From a bacterium (lineage in GTDB: Bacteria; Bacteroidota; Ignavibacteria; Kapaibacteriales; UBA2268): a DNA stretch of 64,000 nt. The notes below the pieces were generated by a model that made no database searches, was not told the origin of the DNA, and saw only the letters and a list, made by a program, of their open reading frames with translations. Position 1 is the stretch's first letter, and every line of letters begins with the position of its first letter. Made by a program: the position numbers and the translations under genes. The stretch lies in the NCBI GenBank assembly GCA_024711295.1, contig JANJTB010000031.1, positions 76,097 to 140,096 of the forward strand. The letters run 5' to 3'. This document shows, one piece after another, positions 35,782 through 44,668 of the stretch.

Positions 35782-36987
35782 ATGACTAAGACATTATTAT
35801 TCATATTTCTTGTCTTCAATATTGAAGTAGTCGGGCAGAATCAGAGAATTATTTCTTATAATTTATTTGACAGAACAGTAGATACCCTAGACCTGGTTGA
35901 TTTTGATTCGACTATTGTTAGCGAAATGACCGAATATTATATTGGAAATTTTAATAATGATATTAATCTTTTAAGCGAAAAAGCTCCAGTTGACAATGTT
36001 TTTCCTGGTAGCAATTTTACACGAAAAAGACAAGCTTCTTTAGACTTTGATATAAATAATTACCCTATTAGAACGACTGTTAAATTATTCAAACTTGAAA
36101 ATGATTCAATAAAGAGTAAATGTTCGGGAAGTTTAATTAGCCGAAAGCATGTATTGACTGCGTGTCATTGTGTTGCAAAAATTGATAAAGATTCATTATT
36201 ATATGATTCACTATTTATTTGTCCTGCTTTAGACAATGGAAGAACTAATAACAATTTTGAATGTAGTTGGGTAAAAAAAATATTTATTTTTGAAAATTGG
36301 AATATCTCTAATTCTGACTTTTCAGTTTTAGAATTAGAAAAACCTATTGGAGATGATACAGGATGGATAAGTATTGGATTTGAATCTGATAATGCATCAT
36401 TGTTGGATGGGATATTCTATAAGTTTTCATATCCTGCTACAACTATTCTCACATTAGATTCTAATTCATATAATGGAGATACTCTTTATTATGGCTACGG
36501 TATCGCTGATGTTGTAATGAATAATAGTTTTGGAGTAAAATATACCAATGGTATACCTGGAGAAAGTGGTAGTTCTTTGATAAAAATTAAGAATTATAAA
36601 ACCTATACTAGTTATGGAGTTCTTTCTTGGTCTAACAATTTAAATCATAGCAGATTGACAAATTGGAAATATTATGCACTAAAATCAATTATAAGTAATG
36701 ACCTTGCTGAGTTAAACGATAATATCATAGACATACCAGAAATTTCAATCTTTCCTATTCCTACATCAGATTATCTTAATGTAATTTATTTAGCTGAATA
36801 TAAATTTAACAAACTCATACTTTTTGACTTAAATGGGAGAAAAGTCCTAGAAAAAACAAACCTAACAAATGAAATTCAATTAAATTTATCATTTCTACAA
36901 AGTGGAACATACATTATGATTATTTATTCTGATAAAAGGCATTTTGTAAATAAAATAGTTAAAACAACTGCTAATAACGATTATTAA
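35782..36987 (+). CDS. Trypsin-fold (V8/glutamyl endopeptidase-like) serine protease with T9SS CTD
   Basis: CSGSLI..KHVLTACHC (His), SDFSVLEL (Asp), GESGS (Ser); C-terminal IFPIP...LQSGTY. Confidence 0.85.
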   Translation: MTKTLLFIFLVFNIEVVGQNQRIISYNLFDRTVDTLDLVDFDSTIVSEMTEYYIGNFNNDINLLSEKAPVDNVFPGSNFTRKRQASLDFDINNYPIRTTVKLFKLENDSIKSKCSGSLISRKHVLTACHCVAKIDKDSLLYDSLFICPALDNGRTNNNFECSWVKKIFIFENWNISNSDFSVLELEKPIGDDTGWISIGFESDNASLLDGIFYKFSYPATTILTLDSNSYNGDTLYYGYGIADVVMNNSFGVKYTNGIPGESGSSLIKIKNYKTYTSYGVLSWSNNLNHSRLTNWKYYALKSIISNDLAELNDNIIDIPEISIFPIPTSDYLNVIYLAEYKFNKLILFDLNGRKVLEKTNLTNEIQLNLSFLQSGTYIMIIYSDKRHFVNKIVKTTANNDY

Positions 36988-37964: not shown

Positions 37965-37995
37965 AAAAAAAAGGCTGCCATTTTTGGTGACAGCC
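37965..37995 (-). terminator. Intrinsic terminator of the cytochrome operon
   Basis: Minus strand reads GGCTGTCA-ccaaaaa-TGGCAGCC followed by T8. Confidence 0.8.
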
Positions 37996-38024
37996 CATAA
38001 GAAAAATCAAATTTCAGAAAATGT

Positions 38025-38378
38025 TTATTTAGTTTCTGCTTTCAATGACATTAACCATTCTAACATGATTTTAAGGTCTTCATCGCTACCTTTGAAAGGA
38101 ACTGGATGTTTTTTACCATTTAATACTTCGTCTTTTTTCATATACTTAGTAAAGAATTCCAAGTCTTTGTCAGCAGTAAGCGTAGATAAATCAGGTACTT
38201 TATCTGATTTTTTCTTAGCTTCGATGCTGGCAGCAGTTACACTATGGCAAGCAGCACATTTAGCGTCTTCAAAAATAGTCTTACCGTCTTTGCCTTCAGC
38301 AAAAGAGAATTGAACAAATACTGTAGCTAAAAAGCCCATCAAAGCTAAAATAGCAACTGTTGATTTGAATGTTTTCAT
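38025..38378 (-). CDS. Periplasmic monoheme cytochrome c
   Basis: Sec signal (SFA|E), GKTIF..KCAACH, PDL, KKHP; AAGGAG RBS. Confidence 0.9.
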   Translation of the reverse strand: MKTFKSTVAILALMGFLATVFVQFSFAEGKDGKTIFEDAKCAACHSVTAASIEAKKKSDKVPDLSTLTADKDLEFFTKYMKKDEVLNGKKHPVPFKGSDEDLKIMLEWLMSLKAETK

Positions 38379-38414
38379 ATTTAAAATCTCCTTAAAAAAA
38401 AATGTTTTATAAAT

Positions 38415-38897
38415 TTAACTAGAAATAGTCAGTATTTTTTTTCCAGCATCATATTCTGTTTTATATAAAGTCATGTCGGTCGCTGTCGAAAATCCTTTGT
38501 TATCAACTGACTTGCCGTCCACAAAAGAAAAAGTAGCTCCGTGACACAGACAAGTCATTAAACCATCAGACGTATCAGGTAGCGAAACGTTACAATTCTG
38601 ATGTCTGCACAATGCATCCATAACAGTAAAGGTGCCGTCAGCATTATGTTTGATTATTACAGGATCACCCCCATTCACCTTGTCAAATCTTAATACTTCG
38701 TGATTTCCGGGAGTCTGCAATTTTGGGTATTGAGTTAAATCAACATCAAATGAATCACCTGGTTTTGGTTTTGGTGGCAATTCATCTTGCTCGCAAGAAT
38801 TAATTACACTCGAAAAAGCACCTGCAAACAACCCAAAACCAGCAACTTTACCTGTAGCTTTAAGGAATTCTCTGCGTTTATTATATTTATTAGTCAT
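38415..38897 (-). CDS. Rieske [2Fe-2S] protein, Tat-exported lipoprotein
   Basis: KRREFLK twin-arginine motif, lipobox INSC, box I CRHQNC, box II CLCHGATF. Start taken at 38897 (alternative 38903). Confidence 0.9.
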   Translation of the reverse strand: MTNKYNKRREFLKATGKVAGFGLFAGAFSSVINSCEQDELPPKPKPGDSFDVDLTQYPKLQTPGNHEVLRFDKVNGGDPVIIKHNADGTFTVMDALCRHQNCNVSLPDTSDGLMTCLCHGATFSFVDGKSVDNKGFSTATDMTLYKTEYDAGKKILTISS

Positions 38898-38910
38898 AAT
38901 CATCACCCTA

Positions 38911-40137
38911 TTAATAAAATACATGTACTTGGAAAGCCCATTGAGCTGCATATCCTTCAAGATGAGTTTTATCATTGATTCGATATTCAGGCAGAAAAGC
39001 TATGTAAGGCAAAATATATGCCTTAGCACCAAATACATAATGGTTTGTTGTAAAATCACGGTTATCGGCGATATATTTGGTATTACCAGTTTCGAGACGT
39101 GCGTATGCAATTAATGGCTCAAATACCTGATAATTTAGTTCTACAGTAAAGTTATTTGCTTCCAATAAGGTTTGTTTAACTGTACGCATATACTCAGTCA
39201 TCAAAGCAAGTTTATCAACTAATCCTATATTAAAAAACACGTTACCTATATAGTAGTGTTCATTACCGAAATAAATGCCATTGTCAGTCTTTAATGGTGA
39301 ATTAAAGAATAATGTACCACCTGCGAAAACATTTATACCAGGAGCGAGTTCTGGAGGAAATAATACTACTCTAAACACGCTTGACATGTGGTTACCATTA
39401 ACAGGTGCTCCTGCACCCGAAAGTCCAATAGGAATTGATGTTTTTGATAAATTTTCAGAGCTGAACATTCCGAAACTGACGCCAAGCCATGATAATGCTT
39501 CGTAGTCAATCTGGAATCCTAACTCAGCATAATCATCAGGAACTACGGGAATACCTCTCTGACCTGAAGCAATTTGTCTGTTAAGCATGGTGTGGTCTTC
39601 GTATTTTGTGCCTATCGTCGGTTGGAAATACCCTACTCTTATTATAGGTAAATCTTCACCTGGTTTAATAATAGCACTTGCTGCACCCGGTTGCTGACCA
39701 GGGTACCTCATAATTGAGTGAATATCGTAACCAAAATTGTAAAGACCTTCGATTGTAAGCCACTCAGTAGGTTCGTAAGCTAAATAATTAGACCATTGCA
39801 TTACCATGTGCTTTCTTTCTGAAACACCTGATTGTGAGCCCCATCGAGCTGTTTGATAACGAAAGTCAAAACCATAAGTAAATTTATCGTCAAGAAATTG
39901 GTTAGTTTCCTGTGTTAAGTCAAAAAGACCTCTAAGACCAATAGACTCAGGATCAATCAATGCACTCTGATTTCTTGACATCCAACCTGGATTATTCCTG
40001 ATACCACCACCTTGAGTGTTAATATGGCAGCCGGTACATTTAGTACCGTAAGATTGAATTAACGAATATTGCGGTCTTGATTGAACATCCAATACCAGCA
40101 GTACCGTTAGAATTATTATCAGAAAATATTTTTTCAT
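38911..40137 (-). CDS. Cyc2-like fused monoheme cytochrome c / outer-membrane beta-barrel
   Basis: Signal peptide, then PQYS...CTGCH...GGGIRN at the mature N-terminus; amphipathic beta-strands; C-terminal beta-signal FQVHVFY. Confidence 0.75.
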   Translation of the reverse strand: MKKYFLIIILTVLLVLDVQSRPQYSLIQSYGTKCTGCHINTQGGGIRNNPGWMSRNQSALIDPESIGLRGLFDLTQETNQFLDDKFTYGFDFRYQTARWGSQSGVSERKHMVMQWSNYLAYEPTEWLTIEGLYNFGYDIHSIMRYPGQQPGAASAIIKPGEDLPIIRVGYFQPTIGTKYEDHTMLNRQIASGQRGIPVVPDDYAELGFQIDYEALSWLGVSFGMFSSENLSKTSIPIGLSGAGAPVNGNHMSSVFRVVLFPPELAPGINVFAGGTLFFNSPLKTDNGIYFGNEHYYIGNVFFNIGLVDKLALMTEYMRTVKQTLLEANNFTVELNYQVFEPLIAYARLETGNTKYIADNRDFTTNHYVFGAKAYILPYIAFLPEYRINDKTHLEGYAAQWAFQVHVFY

Positions 40138-40246: not shown

Positions 40247-41314
40247 TTATTGCAATGCATTAATAGCATTTTTGATTACAGCTTTGATGTACTTAGGATT
40301 GTGTATACCCCAGCTTTGGTCAGCTGCAGCCCAACGATAGTTGTACAAAGCAGCAGCATGTAATGTGGGGTATGAGCCTGGTACAGCTGCATCATGTTCC
40401 CAATGACCATGACTGCTTGTTGTGTCAATCATTTTCTTGGTAACAAGAATTTCTCTTAATTGGGTTAAGAGATTTCTTGTTTCTGTTTGTGTACCATAAA
40501 AGTCAAAGTTTGTAACATTAGCATCAGTATGACAACCTTTACAAACAGATATATTATCAACTAAAGTAGTACCATTATCATATTTCATTTTCATTGTATG
40601 ACCACCAGCCTGAGCGCCATAAGCTTTGCCCATGTGACAATCAACACAAGAATTTTGCAATACGTTCATGTGAACAACAGTTTTATTGTATGGTTCGGGT
40701 CCGGGTATTTCGAAAGCACCATTACCAACAAATGCATTGGCTGCTGAACTGTAGTGAGGACCAAAATGTGATGAACCAACTCTATAAGTTGAGTCTGTTT
40801 TGGTAATGTCAATCATTGGTGATAAAGCCCTGGTTTGGTGACACATAGCACAAACGCTTCCTTTACCAAAATTGTGAGTTGTATTTGACATACGGAATTT
40901 TACATCACCGGTATAAGTAAGTTCCCAATCTGTCTGATCGCTTTTTCTATGAACATGGTGACAGGTACGACAATTTTGACCTGTTGGATTCATAACTTCT
41001 GCTTTTGTGTTAAATTCACCGGAAGAAGCGACTTCAAGGAAACCGTCATTGGTGTGGCATGGCGCACATGTAGCAGCTGAACGCTCAAAAGAAGTACCCT
41101 TACCATGTTGTGAGTTTTCCCATTGCAATTGTTTTGCAAATAACAGATTAGTTGAGTTATGACAAGTCGCGCATTGCTCTTGGCCATCTTTACCATCAGT
41201 ACCGGCTAATCCGTCTTTTCCTGCAGGACCTTCGCAAGATGTTATAAACAATGTTACACTTGCTAATGTTGCTACCAGCAACATCGAAAAAATCTTTGAC
41301 AAAAAGTTATTCAT
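40247..41314 (-). CDS. Hexaheme c-type cytochrome lipoprotein
   Basis: Lipobox ITSC, G-X-X linker, six CXXCH motifs (CATCH, CAPCH, CRTCH, CAMCH, CVDCH, CKGCH), C-terminal DQSWGIHNPKY; GGAG RBS. Confidence 0.92.
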   Translation of the reverse strand: MNNFLSKIFSMLLVATLASVTLFITSCEGPAGKDGLAGTDGKDGQEQCATCHNSTNLLFAKQLQWENSQHGKGTSFERSAATCAPCHTNDGFLEVASSGEFNTKAEVMNPTGQNCRTCHHVHRKSDQTDWELTYTGDVKFRMSNTTHNFGKGSVCAMCHQTRALSPMIDITKTDSTYRVGSSHFGPHYSSAANAFVGNGAFEIPGPEPYNKTVVHMNVLQNSCVDCHMGKAYGAQAGGHTMKMKYDNGTTLVDNISVCKGCHTDANVTNFDFYGTQTETRNLLTQLREILVTKKMIDTTSSHGHWEHDAAVPGSYPTLHAAALYNYRWAAADQSWGIHNPKYIKAVIKNAINALQ

Positions 41315-41728: not shown

Positions 41729-42727
41729 TTAAAAATCTAGCATTTCAATAGCAATATTATACACATCATCTACAGAAATTGAACTCATATCATCATTATA
41801 TTTACCAGATAATGTAATTGGTTCAGGCGAAAATATGTGACTTTTTGTCCATAATGGACCCCACCTTTTTGAAGACATGCTTGGAGTATTGGGGAAAAAT
41901 GTTAAAACTGGTATTTGCATTGACGCTGCTATATGAAGTACACCTGTTGAATTGGCTACCAATAAATCAGACCTTCTGATCAACTTTATAAGTTGTTCCA
42001 AACTTAACAGTTCGTATAAATTAACAGTGTTAGCATTATTAGATAATAAGCTGCATATATCTTTATCTTGTCCGGTACCTGTAATGAAAATTAAAAGTTC
42101 TTCGAATTTACTTAGCCTTTTAATTAATTCATCGAGCTTTGATATTGGTATATCTAATGAAGAGCCTCTCGAGCCTGGATGTATAATCATTGTTTTTTTA
42201 TTCTTAGGATTATACTTAGTTATCAGATTATTTATATCAAGTGATACATTATCACTTATAATTGGAATTACAGGTTTAGGATTATGTTTGGATTTAATTA
42301 TGCTTTCAAACATTCTAAGATTATAATCTGCTTCGTGGTATTCAGAGATTTTTCGATGGTCATAGATTTTATGATTAAAAAAAATTGAGTAAAAACGGTA
42401 TGCACTGCCAATCCTTAATGGAATTCTGTTTTTGAATGCTGAGAATGCTTCATCAAATTTAGGCATAGGAAAAAAAGCGACATCAAATTGATTATTTTTA
42501 AATACATTATCAATACCGTTTAATTTATCAACCAAAAAATATTTATCAACATATAAATTTTTCAATAAAGGTTCATTTACAGAATTCGCTACAATCGAAA
42601 CACATAAATTAGGGTTGTATTCCTTTAATGCTCTTGCAAGTGGTAAAGTCAGTACCATATCACCAATTTTGTCGGTTCGTACTATGACTATTTCACTTGA
42701 ATTATCAAACTTCTCAATAATTTTCAT
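41729..42727 (-). CDS. Glycosyltransferase family 9 (LPS heptosyltransferase-like)
   Basis: RTDKIGDMVLTLP, HEADYNL, IHPGS, NSTGVLHIAA and RWGP motifs. Confidence 0.9.
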   Translation of the reverse strand: MKIIEKFDNSSEIVIVRTDKIGDMVLTLPLARALKEYNPNLCVSIVANSVNEPLLKNLYVDKYFLVDKLNGIDNVFKNNQFDVAFFPMPKFDEAFSAFKNRIPLRIGSAYRFYSIFFNHKIYDHRKISEYHEADYNLRMFESIIKSKHNPKPVIPIISDNVSLDINNLITKYNPKNKKTMIIHPGSRGSSLDIPISKLDELIKRLSKFEELLIFITGTGQDKDICSLLSNNANTVNLYELLSLEQLIKLIRRSDLLVANSTGVLHIAASMQIPVLTFFPNTPSMSSKRWGPLWTKSHIFSPEPITLSGKYNDDMSSISVDDVYNIAIEMLDF

Positions 42728-42776: not shown

Positions 42777-43556
42777 ATGAAACAACCCTTAAGTGTTTGC
42801 TATATATCCTATAATGAAAGCGATAGAATTGCAGTTTCAATTAATTCGGTAATTGACTTCGCCACTCAAATAGTAGTTATTGACTCATACTCAAGCGATT
42901 CTACCAAAGAAATTGCAGAAAATTTAGGAGCTGAAGTTTTCTTATCGGAATGGAAAGGTTTTGTTGAGCAAAAGAATTTTGCTATCAACAAAGCAAATCA
43001 GGATTGGATTCTGTTGCTCGATTGTGACGAAGTAGTAAGTGATGAATTAAAGCAAAGTATTATAGATGCTATAATAAATGACAAAATTGGATTTTATAGT
43101 ATTAATAGGAAAACTCATTATTTGGGAAAACTTATGAAATATTCATGGCAGCCGGACAGGGTTGTCAGATTATTGCATAAATCACTTAATCCCAAATTTA
43201 CAGGTGAATTGGTACATGAAAAAATTGATATGAAAGATTATAAATCTAGCACGTTATCCGGTAACCTGATTCATTATTCTTACAGAAATATCAGGGAGCA
43301 TTTTGAGAAAACCACTAAATACTCTGAATTGTCTGCTTTAAGTTACCAAAAAATAGGAAAAAAATCAAAATTAGTCAACCTAATAATTAATCCTTTATTT
43401 GCATTTATTAACATGTACATCTTAAAATTAGGAATATTGGACGGATGGCGAGGAATAATCGCTGCTTTCAGCAGTATGACAGGTACATTTTTGAAATATG
43501 CAATTTTGAGGGAACTAAATCAAACAACCAGTGCACACTTGCCAAAATCAAAATGA
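42777..43556 (+). CDS. Glycosyltransferase family 2 (WaaE/KdtX-like)
   Basis: DSYSSDST, QKNFA, LDCDE, VHE, HYSY and LDGWRG motifs. Confidence 0.9.
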   Translation: MKQPLSVCYISYNESDRIAVSINSVIDFATQIVVIDSYSSDSTKEIAENLGAEVFLSEWKGFVEQKNFAINKANQDWILLLDCDEVVSDELKQSIIDAIINDKIGFYSINRKTHYLGKLMKYSWQPDRVVRLLHKSLNPKFTGELVHEKIDMKDYKSSTLSGNLIHYSYRNIREHFEKTTKYSELSALSYQKIGKKSKLVNLIINPLFAFINMYILKLGILDGWRGIIAAFSSMTGTFLKYAILRELNQTTSAHLPKSK

Positions 43557-44668
43557 CATTCATTACTGAATAATGGTAATTCAAGTGACCTCGCAGTTAC
43601 TTCCAAAAGTAATTGTTCCAAAAGTTTTGAACTATGTTTGTTAATAGTGTTACTACTAAATCTATGCCTTACATAGCTGTTAAAATCTAATTTAGAATAG
43701 TCCTGAGTATATAATGTAAGTCTTGAAATACCATTTTCATCCTTTAGAAGCATCTGGTTTGCTACCCAGCTATTAACTAAGGGTTGCGGGTCTTCCTTTA
43801 GAAGATGAAACTTCTCAAATCGTTTTTGAAATAAATTCGGTAAATTGTCATTAAATATTTTAGTTCTGTTTTGTAATCTTTTTTTTACAATATCAAGAAA
43901 AAGAATCTCTCTTTTGCACAAAAAATCTCTCAACTCAGACTCATCCTTGATACCAAGCTTGTTAGCAATCTTATTGTTTTTCATTGTAAAGTAAACTCTA
44001 GAAGCATCATTAATTAGCTTTTGTGAAGGGGAAACACGCGACAGACAGCATCCAAGTTCTCTATCACGATAGTTCTTATGATAATTTATTTTAAGATCTG
44101 ATGCGGGATAAATACTCTTTACTGAAACGATGCTTTTTTCGGATCCGTTTGTAAGAAAAGAATTACTTACGATGCTTCTTTCCTTCAGATTATTTAATAA
44201 TTCCATCCATATATCGACAGTTTCGTCAAAGCACACTTTATAAGCAAGAACAAAACCAGTTAAAGAGTCAATTGCAAATGCAATGTACATTTCATTACAG
44301 TCACTTCTATTCCAGGAGCAATGGAATTTCTTGCCTGAAAGGTAAATTTGCCTCGGTGTGTGATTATTGACAGACAAATCAACAAACTCATGCCAGTCTG
44401 GTGCTCTTTTCAGGTAGTCTCTTATGATAGTATTTATTCTTGTTGGAGTAGAATGATACTGTTTAGATAATTCACGAATTGTTTTACCATTTAAGTAGTC
44501 ATGAGCCATTTTTGGCAAATTCTTAATGTTATGATAATTCGTTTTGCTTGACCAAGTTTTACCACATGTAAAACATCGGTATCTCTGAACTCCCAAAGAA
44601 GTTTGTCCATGACGAATAATATCTGTGCTGCGACAATAAACGCAAGACTTTACCATAATGAAACTCAA
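43520..44668 (-). CDS. IS256/Mutator-type transposase-derived protein with Zn ribbon and HTH; catalytic residues apparently lost
   Basis: CVYC...QRYRCFTC, HTH (KTIRELSKQY), RNase-H-like core aligning to IS256 (ETVDIWMELLNNLKER...TNG...IYP). Alternative ATG start at 44656. Confidence 0.65.
   Translation of the reverse strand: MSFIMVKSCVYCRSTDIIRHGQTSLGVQRYRCFTCGKTWSSKTNYHNIKNLPKMAHDYLNGKTIRELSKQYHSTPTRINTIIRDYLKRAPDWHEFVDLSVNNHTPRQIYLSGKKFHCSWNRSDCNEMYIAFAIDSLTGFVLAYKVCFDETVDIWMELLNNLKERSIVSNSFLTNGSEKSIVSVKSIYPASDLKINYHKNYRDRELGCCLSRVSPSQKLINDASRVYFTMKNNKIANKLGIKDESELRDFLCKREILFLDIVKKRLQNRTKIFNDNLPNLFQKRFEKFHLLKEDPQPLVNSWVANQMLLKDENGISRLTLYTQDYSKLDFNSYVRHRFSSNTINKHSSKLLEQLLLEVTARSLELPLFSNECHFDFGKCALVV

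Follow-up and report, generated by a model that had tools for sequence, protein, structure and literature searches.

Microbial iron oxidation is inferred from genomes and metagenomes chiefly by means of one marker gene, Cyc2. The definition sections of Keffer et al., 2021 (PMC8406198) call for AXPXFAR[Q/K][T/Y] before a CXXCH heme motif and PXL after it, the motif with which their tree was screened, together with a length of at least 365 amino acids (aa), a fused 16-strand porin and a blastp match at E<=1e-5. OprP/OprO-type porins are the templates reported for Cyc2 in parts of two sources (PMC8406198, PMC13741234), and canonical Cyc2 is reported, in portions of the literature, from Bacteroidota and other phyla of the Fibrobacteres-Chlorobi-Bacteroidetes (FCB) group. 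Here we analyse a gene at 38911..40137 of a 64,000-nt stretch of DNA (referred to as the window; contig JANJTB010000031.1, positions 76,097 to 140,096 of the forward strand, assembly GCA_024711295.1) from a bacterium of the order Kapaibacteriales, class Ignavibacteria. A preliminary description, made from the letters alone, had called the product a divergent Cyc2-like fusion of a heme c peptide to a beta-barrel. We find that this protein, P0001, belongs to a large family that, on profile comparison, is a genuine but remote sister of Cyc2 outside the published definition. We consider it moderately likely that P0001 is a trans-outer-membrane electron conduit, with one heme fused to a 16-strand barrel, that probably oxidises Fe(II). 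Fe(II) is proposed by homology, and we infer both the substrate and the direction of electron flow.

The open reading frame (ORF), on the minus strand, encodes 408 aa by translation. Conservation is given below for an alignment of 33 homologs and, more widely, for 311 full-length family members. The fusion and its parts are:

38911..40137, minus strand: Cyc2-like fused monoheme cytochrome-porin P0001, recognised from the ORF, family conservation, a 16-strand barrel model and homology to canonical Cyc2
40078..40137, minus strand: signal peptide, residues 1-20, predicted cleavage after VQS, read from the sequence
40024..40038, minus strand: heme c attachment motif CTGCH (C34, C37, H38), invariant in 33/33 and present in 308/311, with 3 gaps
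39589..39600, minus strand: E-D-H-T, residues 180-183, in loop L3, a candidate distal heme ligand or substrate-metal site from conservation and the model
38914..38934, minus strand: C-terminal beta-signal FQVHVFY, the last strand of the model, with Q403, H405 and Y408 conserved

The protein begins MKKYFLIIILTVLLVLDVQS followed by RPQYSLIQSYGTKCTGCHINTQGGGIRN, the latter being the mature start with the cleavage site judged by eye, and a hydrophobic N-terminus is common to all 33 aligned homologs. The single CXXCH lies 13 residues into the mature chain, and the segment RVGYFQPTIGTKYEDHT within the protein includes H182. Across the 33 sequences, C34, C37, H38, R47, G51, M113, D181, H182, H405 and Y408 are invariant. 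Among the full-length members, the only departures from CXXCH are the three gaps; R93 and G169 are found in 311/311, D181 in 310, G51 in 309, R47 and M113 in 308, Q403 in 304, H405 in 302 and Y408 in 277. Judging by strand alternation, from which the facing of each residue is taken, Q403 and H405 would face the lumen of the barrel. The fusion put forward in the preliminary description is thus upheld by the conservation of the heme motif, the barrel model and the profile homology to Cyc2, and the features that it listed (the mature N-terminus, INTQGGGIRN, EDHT and FQVHVFY) are all present and conserved. No Pfam or NCBIfam model matched P0001 at E<=1, and no PDB chain was found by sequence. Index shares were 0.99 and 0.96 for RNA-labelled runs of the probable source study and 0.35-0.44 for four activated-sludge RNA runs, values that are not evidence of expression.

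Compared with the published definition, P0001 has a signal peptide, a lone N-terminal CXXCH, 408 aa and 16 predicted strands. The motif AXPXFAR[Q/K][T/Y] is absent: the corresponding residues are S-R-P-Q-Y-S-L-I-Q, in which the Pro, the aromatic and the small residue alone are retained, and the R, [Q/K] and [T/Y] positions are kept nowhere in the family consensus. PXL is absent as well, with INTQGGGIRN after the CH of P0001 and P..L in all of the canonical sequences collected. The family instead has signatures of its own, GGxxR and D-D-H-T, and the columns that follow the heme motif are well kept (N40 in 242/311, G43 in 280, G44 in 288 and R47 in 308). The spacing from the Pro to the first Cys is 10 residues in 215 of the 311 members, the same as in Cyc2. 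In the window's own clade (84 sequences, support 0.998) it is 12 in 79 sequences, corresponding to a 2-residue insertion before the first Cys.

Canonical Cyc2 sequences were gathered by back-translation of the published motif, not from named references of clusters 1-3. In genuine Cyc2, three residues, not five, separate the motif from CXXCH. The earlier statement that the mature N-terminus of P0001 occupies the position of the Cyc2 motif stands, with the spacing between motif and CXXCH corrected. The three-residue motif was present in 47/301 genomes of a betaproteobacterial order, where the reversed control gave 0, and in 48/151 genomes of the window's own class; it was found neither in the genome that holds the window nor in 16 other sampled genomes of its order. 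A pattern with five-residue spacing returned 20 loci, none of them a Cyc2. At several of these (L001, L002, L004, L006, L014, L019 and L020) we noted Chromatiaceae and other gammaproteobacterial proteins of ~540-560 aa that carry PAFARKNYLGKDCTxCH mid-chain, at about residue 145, rather than at the N-terminal position before a porin. The surroundings of the heme motif are closely alike, yet its use is unrelated.

Profile comparison relates the family to canonical Cyc2 over its full length. Using hhalign and a canonical profile of 27 sequences, 24 of them from the window's class, the wider family aligned over 336 columns (98.8%, E 1.4e-16) and the window's clade over 164 columns (95.1%, E 3.3e-8). 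An earlier comparison with a mixed 28-sequence Cyc2 alignment had recovered the signal peptide and motif alone, 34-42 N-terminal columns. Profiles restricted to the barrel gave at most 2.5% between the family and Cyc2, and 0.7-63% among the accepted Cyc2 groups themselves. A local hidden Markov model of the window's clade did no better on Cyc2 (8.0 bits) than on shuffled sequence (7.5 bits). When the family profile was run over five Cyc2-bearing genomes, the Cyc2 genes were the best matches in three (E 4.9e-5 to 0.03). Pairwise, blastp between the family and canonical Cyc2 was run in a database of only 311 sequences: the best E was 7.8e-7, eight high-scoring segment pairs (HSPs) reached E<=1e-5, and P0001 itself got no better than 0.014. 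The canonical groups have hundreds of mutual matches at E<=1e-5.

A FastTree phylogeny of 103 sequences, built on a hard alignment with a motif-defined canonical set that lacks named cluster references, placed 53 canonical Cyc2 and 50 family members on opposite sides of a branch of length 1.57 (support 1.0). The separate GGG-type clade suggested beforehand was thus recovered, with its own GGxxR signature and without nesting inside any of the sampled motif-defined canonical groups. In literature searched by Cyc2 and taxon words only, no GGG/DDHT type was found described.

The predicted fold is consistent with this relationship. An AlphaFold2 model made from the 33-row alignment (predicted local distance difference test, pLDDT, 80.4; predicted template modelling score, pTM, 0.78) shows 16 long strands between residues 86 and 407, with short turns (2-8 residues) on one side of the barrel and several long loops on the opposite side. 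The longest loop, 33 residues between strands 5 and 6 (residues 172-204), corresponds to porin loop L3. The EDHT region lies in this loop, with pLDDT <50 in a model built without heme. By Foldseek and VIA-align, the top structural neighbour was OprP 2o4v (Z 24.2, root-mean-square deviation, rmsd, 3.6, 292 residues aligned), with OprO 4rjx and 4rjw at Z 24.2 and 24.1; over these OprP/OprO matches, rmsd was 3.6-3.7 for 292-294 aligned residues and model residues 73-408. The strand count of 16 and these neighbours at Z about 24 agree with the barrel that had been read from the sequence. A canonical Cyc2 of the same class, modelled likewise, gave pLDDT 83.1, 16 strands and a 32-residue L3, and its top three PDB neighbours were identical to those of P0001. 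A predicted complex of the cytochrome-porin, heme, a 2Fe-2S cluster and the Rieske domain (score 0.05, mark 0.32) is evidence neither way.

Loop L3 also holds the residue proposed beforehand as a candidate distal His. Of the full-length members, 300 have H at position 182, 11 have M, and no other residue occurs there. The triplet 180-182 reads [D/E]-D-H in 299, C-D-M in 10, P-D-M in 1 and P-D-H in 1. The M182 group is marked at only two well-conserved columns, where D becomes C (180) and H becomes M (182), and 11 of the 13 sequences of a single clade (support 1.0) make up the group. Since M182 is confined to this one clade, the swap reflects one evolutionary event. A position that admits only H or M resembles an axial heme ligand, and the change from D-x-H to C-x-M resembles a hard-to-soft change of a metal site; H182 may thus be either the distal heme ligand or part of a substrate-metal site. 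The proposal of a distal His is retained in this form. AlphaFold 3 models of Cyc2, as presented in part of one review, place the heme inside the barrel with the proximal His alone identified (PMC13741234), and the relevant passages of that review (PMC13741234) and of the Ghiorsea paper identify only the proximal His of Cyc2. The heme of Cyc2TAG1 is low-spin with two axial ligands. Taken together, two ligands in Cyc2TAG1 and a single identified His make H182 of loop L3 a candidate for the second ligand of Cyc2.

The family is widespread in the databases searched. A word-seeded search returned 85 homologs, and those that carry a name are annotated as hypothetical protein and come from Kapabacteria, Ignavibacteria, FCB-group and Bacteroidota metagenome-assembled genomes (MAGs). 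The 33-homolog profile, searched against 1.84 billion representatives of clusters at 50% identity, matched 393 proteins at E<=0.001; of these, 192 reached E<=1e-10 and 129 reached E<=1e-30. Remoter members are 358-401 aa long and have the N-terminus A/S-x-P-R-F-A-L-x-x-G-x-x-C-x-x-C-H-x-N-P-x-G-G-x-x-R; widening the profile with them raised the count to 530 proteins, many from Ignavibacteria and Melioribacteraceae. In the ESM Atlas, only porin-like clusters were found, none of them named. A family match was present in 96 of the 151 sampled genomes of the window's class. Closer to the window, the family is in 8/9 genomes of one sister family and in 0/5 other genomes of the window's own family, and the genome itself has a single copy.

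P0001 is encoded within a set of four co-oriented genes with short gaps, for a hexaheme lipoprotein, the cytochrome-porin, a Rieske protein and a monoheme cytochrome c. The features that flank P0001 are:

40247..41314, minus strand: upstream hexaheme c-type cytochrome lipoprotein, 355 aa, six CXXCH; Pfam MtrC/MtrF domain II/IV (7e-13), Cytochrome_C7 and the C-terminal part of c552
38415..38897, minus strand: downstream Rieske [2Fe-2S] protein with a twin-arginine signal and a lipobox Cys; Pfam Rieske (4.8e-9)
38025..38378, minus strand: monoheme class I cytochrome c with a signal peptide, the last gene of the cluster; Pfam Cytochrom_C (4.3e-8)
37972..37996, minus strand: terminator-like hairpin and T-run just past the cytochrome c stop, from a consensus scan

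The hairpin is weak on its own, as the region has only two terminator-like sites where 1.7 would be expected, and a promoter scan of the region was at chance (18 found, 20.1 expected). The 2-kb interval 38001-40000 has a GC content of 0.361, the highest such value in the window, which otherwise ranges over 0.26-0.35. This high GC, together with the family not being found in the five other sampled genomes of the window's own family, gives a hint, from sequence features, that the operon may have been horizontally acquired. In a 77%-identical metagenomic relative (L078), the one related locus returned by a search with P0001 alone, all four genes recur in this order. Nine neighbour Rieske proteins were aligned, with the RR, the lipobox Cys, CxH and CxxH invariant and an extra Cys pair in seven. 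This pair is a mark of high-potential, bc-type clusters. The hexaheme protein has the lipobox ITSC and, directly after the lipobox Cys, a Gly-x-y collagen-like run, GPAGKDGLAGTDGKDG. Some of its homologs have a precomputed Pfam Collagen match, and the genome encodes a 40%-identical paralog at another place (G000:C11:110766-111809).

We surveyed 20 neighbourhoods from genomes of the class, in 19 of which the family gene itself was displayed; the remaining one, L062, is uninformative. A Rieske gene was adjacent in 8/20, and all eight were among the 14 loci with a strong window-type profile match, compared with 0/6 for loci of the short-type clade. Monoheme cytochromes c were adjacent in six loci, diheme CytoC_RC-like proteins in two and a heme protein sorted by the type IX secretion system (T9SS) in one, giving some redox partner (Rieske, cytochrome c or T9SS-sorted heme protein) in 14/20. 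The hexaheme family as such is present in 82/151 genomes of the class. The genome that holds the window encodes three heme-copper oxidase subunit I genes and two Rieske genes.

Several other genes were noted around members of the family. Beside a short-type member, L068:4290-4958 (+) encodes a 222-aa protein that combines a single CXXCH with a Temptin_C domain and a type IX sorting tail; its N-terminus is a weak match to the family profile (1.3e-5), and it may be a cell-surface heme partner. One sister family in the order of the window has an additional small ORF without a Pfam match between the cytochrome-porin and Rieske genes; it encodes 127-169 aa and has no counterpart in the window:

L055:6101-6484, L072:6061-6483, L071:6137-6577 and L053:6176-6685: small ORF between the cytochrome-porin and Rieske genes

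A glycosyltransferase family 9 (heptosyltransferase-like) gene stands beside the cluster in the window (41729-42727, minus strand) and at L059:7631-9280 and L060:7640-8956, possibly as residual synteny with outer-membrane biogenesis genes. Further out in the window, 43520-44668 (minus strand) is an ORF of 382 aa whose N-terminus has an InsA-type zinc ribbon and which is probably the transposase-like gene of an insertion element, and 35782-36987 (plus strand) encodes a trypsin-like serine protease that carries a C-terminal sorting domain for type IX secretion.

For the conduit proposed here, we envisage a heme peptide that would sit inside the barrel or at its periplasmic mouth, with H38 as the presumed proximal ligand and the D-D-H of the constriction loop L3 as either the distal ligand or a docking site for the substrate metal ion beside the heme. 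The donor would be a small reductant from outside the cell, most likely Fe(II) in solution, that enters the pore and reduces the heme. The electron could then pass to the co-encoded periplasmic carriers, the Tat (twin-arginine translocation)-exported Rieske lipoprotein and the monoheme cytochrome c, and from these to one of the three heme-copper oxidases, in a chain that the upstream hexaheme lipoprotein may extend. A more specific proposal, that the family is an overlooked second branch of Cyc2-type oxidases in a mainly heterotrophic class, in which a metal-docking D-D-H of L3 (C-D-M in one clade) either completes the heme or lies beside it and electrons go to a dedicated Tat-exported, high-potential Rieske lipoprotein, is one we offer tentatively and regard as doubtful in this full form.

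A number of observations weigh against the proposed Fe(II)-oxidising conduit. The absence of FAR[Q/K][T/Y] and PXL indicates that the heme environment differs from that of proven Fe(II) oxidases. The model has low confidence at residues 14-31 and 178-186, and M113 (308/311) and H405 (302/311) are equally conserved alternatives as ligands, H405 being probably lumen-facing near the periplasmic rim as judged from strand alternation in the model. By hand count, 25 genomes have both a canonical Cyc2 and a member of the family, which suggests that the two are not redundant. The hexaheme gene was adjacent to the family gene in 0/20 class loci, and a search with the window's hexaheme protein did not recover it from the 16 genomes sampled in the window's own order. 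The cultured members of the class are described, in a portion of one account, as organoheterotrophs (PMC8478452), and no RuBisCO was found in the window's own genome. With matches in 96/151 genomes of this class and no RuBisCO in that genome, the family is no marker of lithoautotrophic iron oxidisers. Its wide distribution in heterotrophs, its coexistence with canonical Cyc2 and its altered heme pocket together leave room for another substrate or for an outward flow of electrons.

In the outward case, the same architecture would deliver respiratory electrons to Fe(III), Mn(IV), humics or partner cells, with the hexaheme protein as terminal reductase. The match of that protein to MtrC/MtrF domains II/IV and its retention in L078 would fit, as would partial reports of Ignavibacteriales MAGs with both iron-oxidation and iron-reduction genes and of Ignavibacteria elsewhere as known iron reducers. 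The hexaheme gene is nevertheless adjacent in none of the 20 class loci, and the partner conserved across the clade, a Rieske protein, carries the cysteine pair of bc-type clusters. Such a protein is expected to be high-potential and thus a poor donor to ferric minerals, and we hold outward flow to be unlikely. Less likely again, in our view, is an oxidase for a different substrate, such as Mn(II), Cu(I) or reduced organic or sulfur compounds, with the D-D-H of L3 suited to hard and C-D-M to soft metals. Coexistence with canonical Cyc2 in 25 genomes does suggest a different job, and the M182 clade differs at columns 180 and 182 in the manner of a hard-to-soft swap at i and i+2; His-to-Met is, however, also a classical exchange of heme axial ligands, the swap occurred once, in one clade, and no metal-handling genes were seen in the 20 neighbourhoods.

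Two other explanations seem very improbable to us. One is that P0001 is neither enzyme nor conduit but a porin plugged by heme that senses redox state or oxygen, works as a gate or stores heme, a reading left room for by a function so far only proposed and by a family very widespread in heterotrophs. Against it stand the periplasmic electron carriers linked in 14/20 loci and the homology to a proven oxidase family. The other, to which we give equally little credence, is that the likeness to Cyc2 is convergent, a CXXCH peptide having been fused independently to an OprP-like porin. The scarcity of blastp HSPs, the weak best match of P0001, the initial profile matches limited to the N-terminal columns and the low barrel-only values speak for such a history. 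The deeper canonical profile, however, gives a collinear match over the full length, the Pro-to-Cys spacing of 10 recurs as in Cyc2, and the barrels of accepted Cyc2 groups are equally unrecognisable to one another. We retain the probably Fe(II)-oxidising conduit as the preferred reading.

The family is large and homologous to Cyc2, is called hypothetical protein wherever it is named, and fails the published motif screen and, in effect, the BLAST threshold while keeping the fused heme-porin design. The candidate in loop L3, with a natural clade in which His is replaced by Met and Asp by Cys, offers a handle on the distal heme ligand of Cyc2. If correct, the Rieske lipoprotein partner would represent a periplasmic acceptor of a type new to such conduits; a Rieske lipoprotein as periplasmic carrier in iron oxidation was not found in the literature searched with Cyc2 and taxon words. 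If the proposal holds, surveys based on the canonical motif would undercount metal oxidation or extracellular electron uptake by common bacteria of sediment, sludge and groundwater.

Among known systems, the closest are the Cyc2 proteins of Acidithiobacillus ferrooxidans, Mariprofundus (Cyc2PV-1) and Ghiorsea (Cyc2TAG1), which share with the family the signal peptide, the CXXCH near the mature N-terminus, a mature start of the form x-P-x-[F/Y]-[A/S], a predicted fused 16-strand OprP/OprO-like barrel of ~400 aa and profile homology along the full length. The family differs in lacking FAR[Q/K][T/Y] and PXL, in the N-x-x-G-G-x-x-R that follows the heme motif, in the D-D-H-T of L3, in M113 and in the C-terminal PEYR...Q-x-H-x-F-Y, and the window's clade differs further in the 2-residue insertion before the first Cys. 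The partner of the family is a Rieske lipoprotein, whereas the partners in known Cyc2 systems are rusticyanin, Cyc1 or cytochrome c4. Cyt572 of Leptospirillum (Cyc2 cluster 3), likened here from its published description, also has one heme and a 16-strand barrel with OprO as the best template, according to part of one review (PMC13741234), but is 556 aa long and acidophilic. OprP and OprO (2o4v, 4rjw, 4rjx) have the fold in common with P0001 but no heme peptide, and P0001 had no Pfam match at E<=1 to the phosphate-selective porin O/P family (PF07396, Porin_O_P) and no PDB match by sequence. MtrCAB, MtoAB and PioAB share the purpose of electron transfer across the outer membrane, and an MtrC-like multiheme lipoprotein is encoded beside P0001. 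These systems, as outlined in part of one source (PMC8406198), have a separate decaheme cytochrome in a 26-strand barrel, whereas P0001 would have one heme fused to a barrel of 16 strands.

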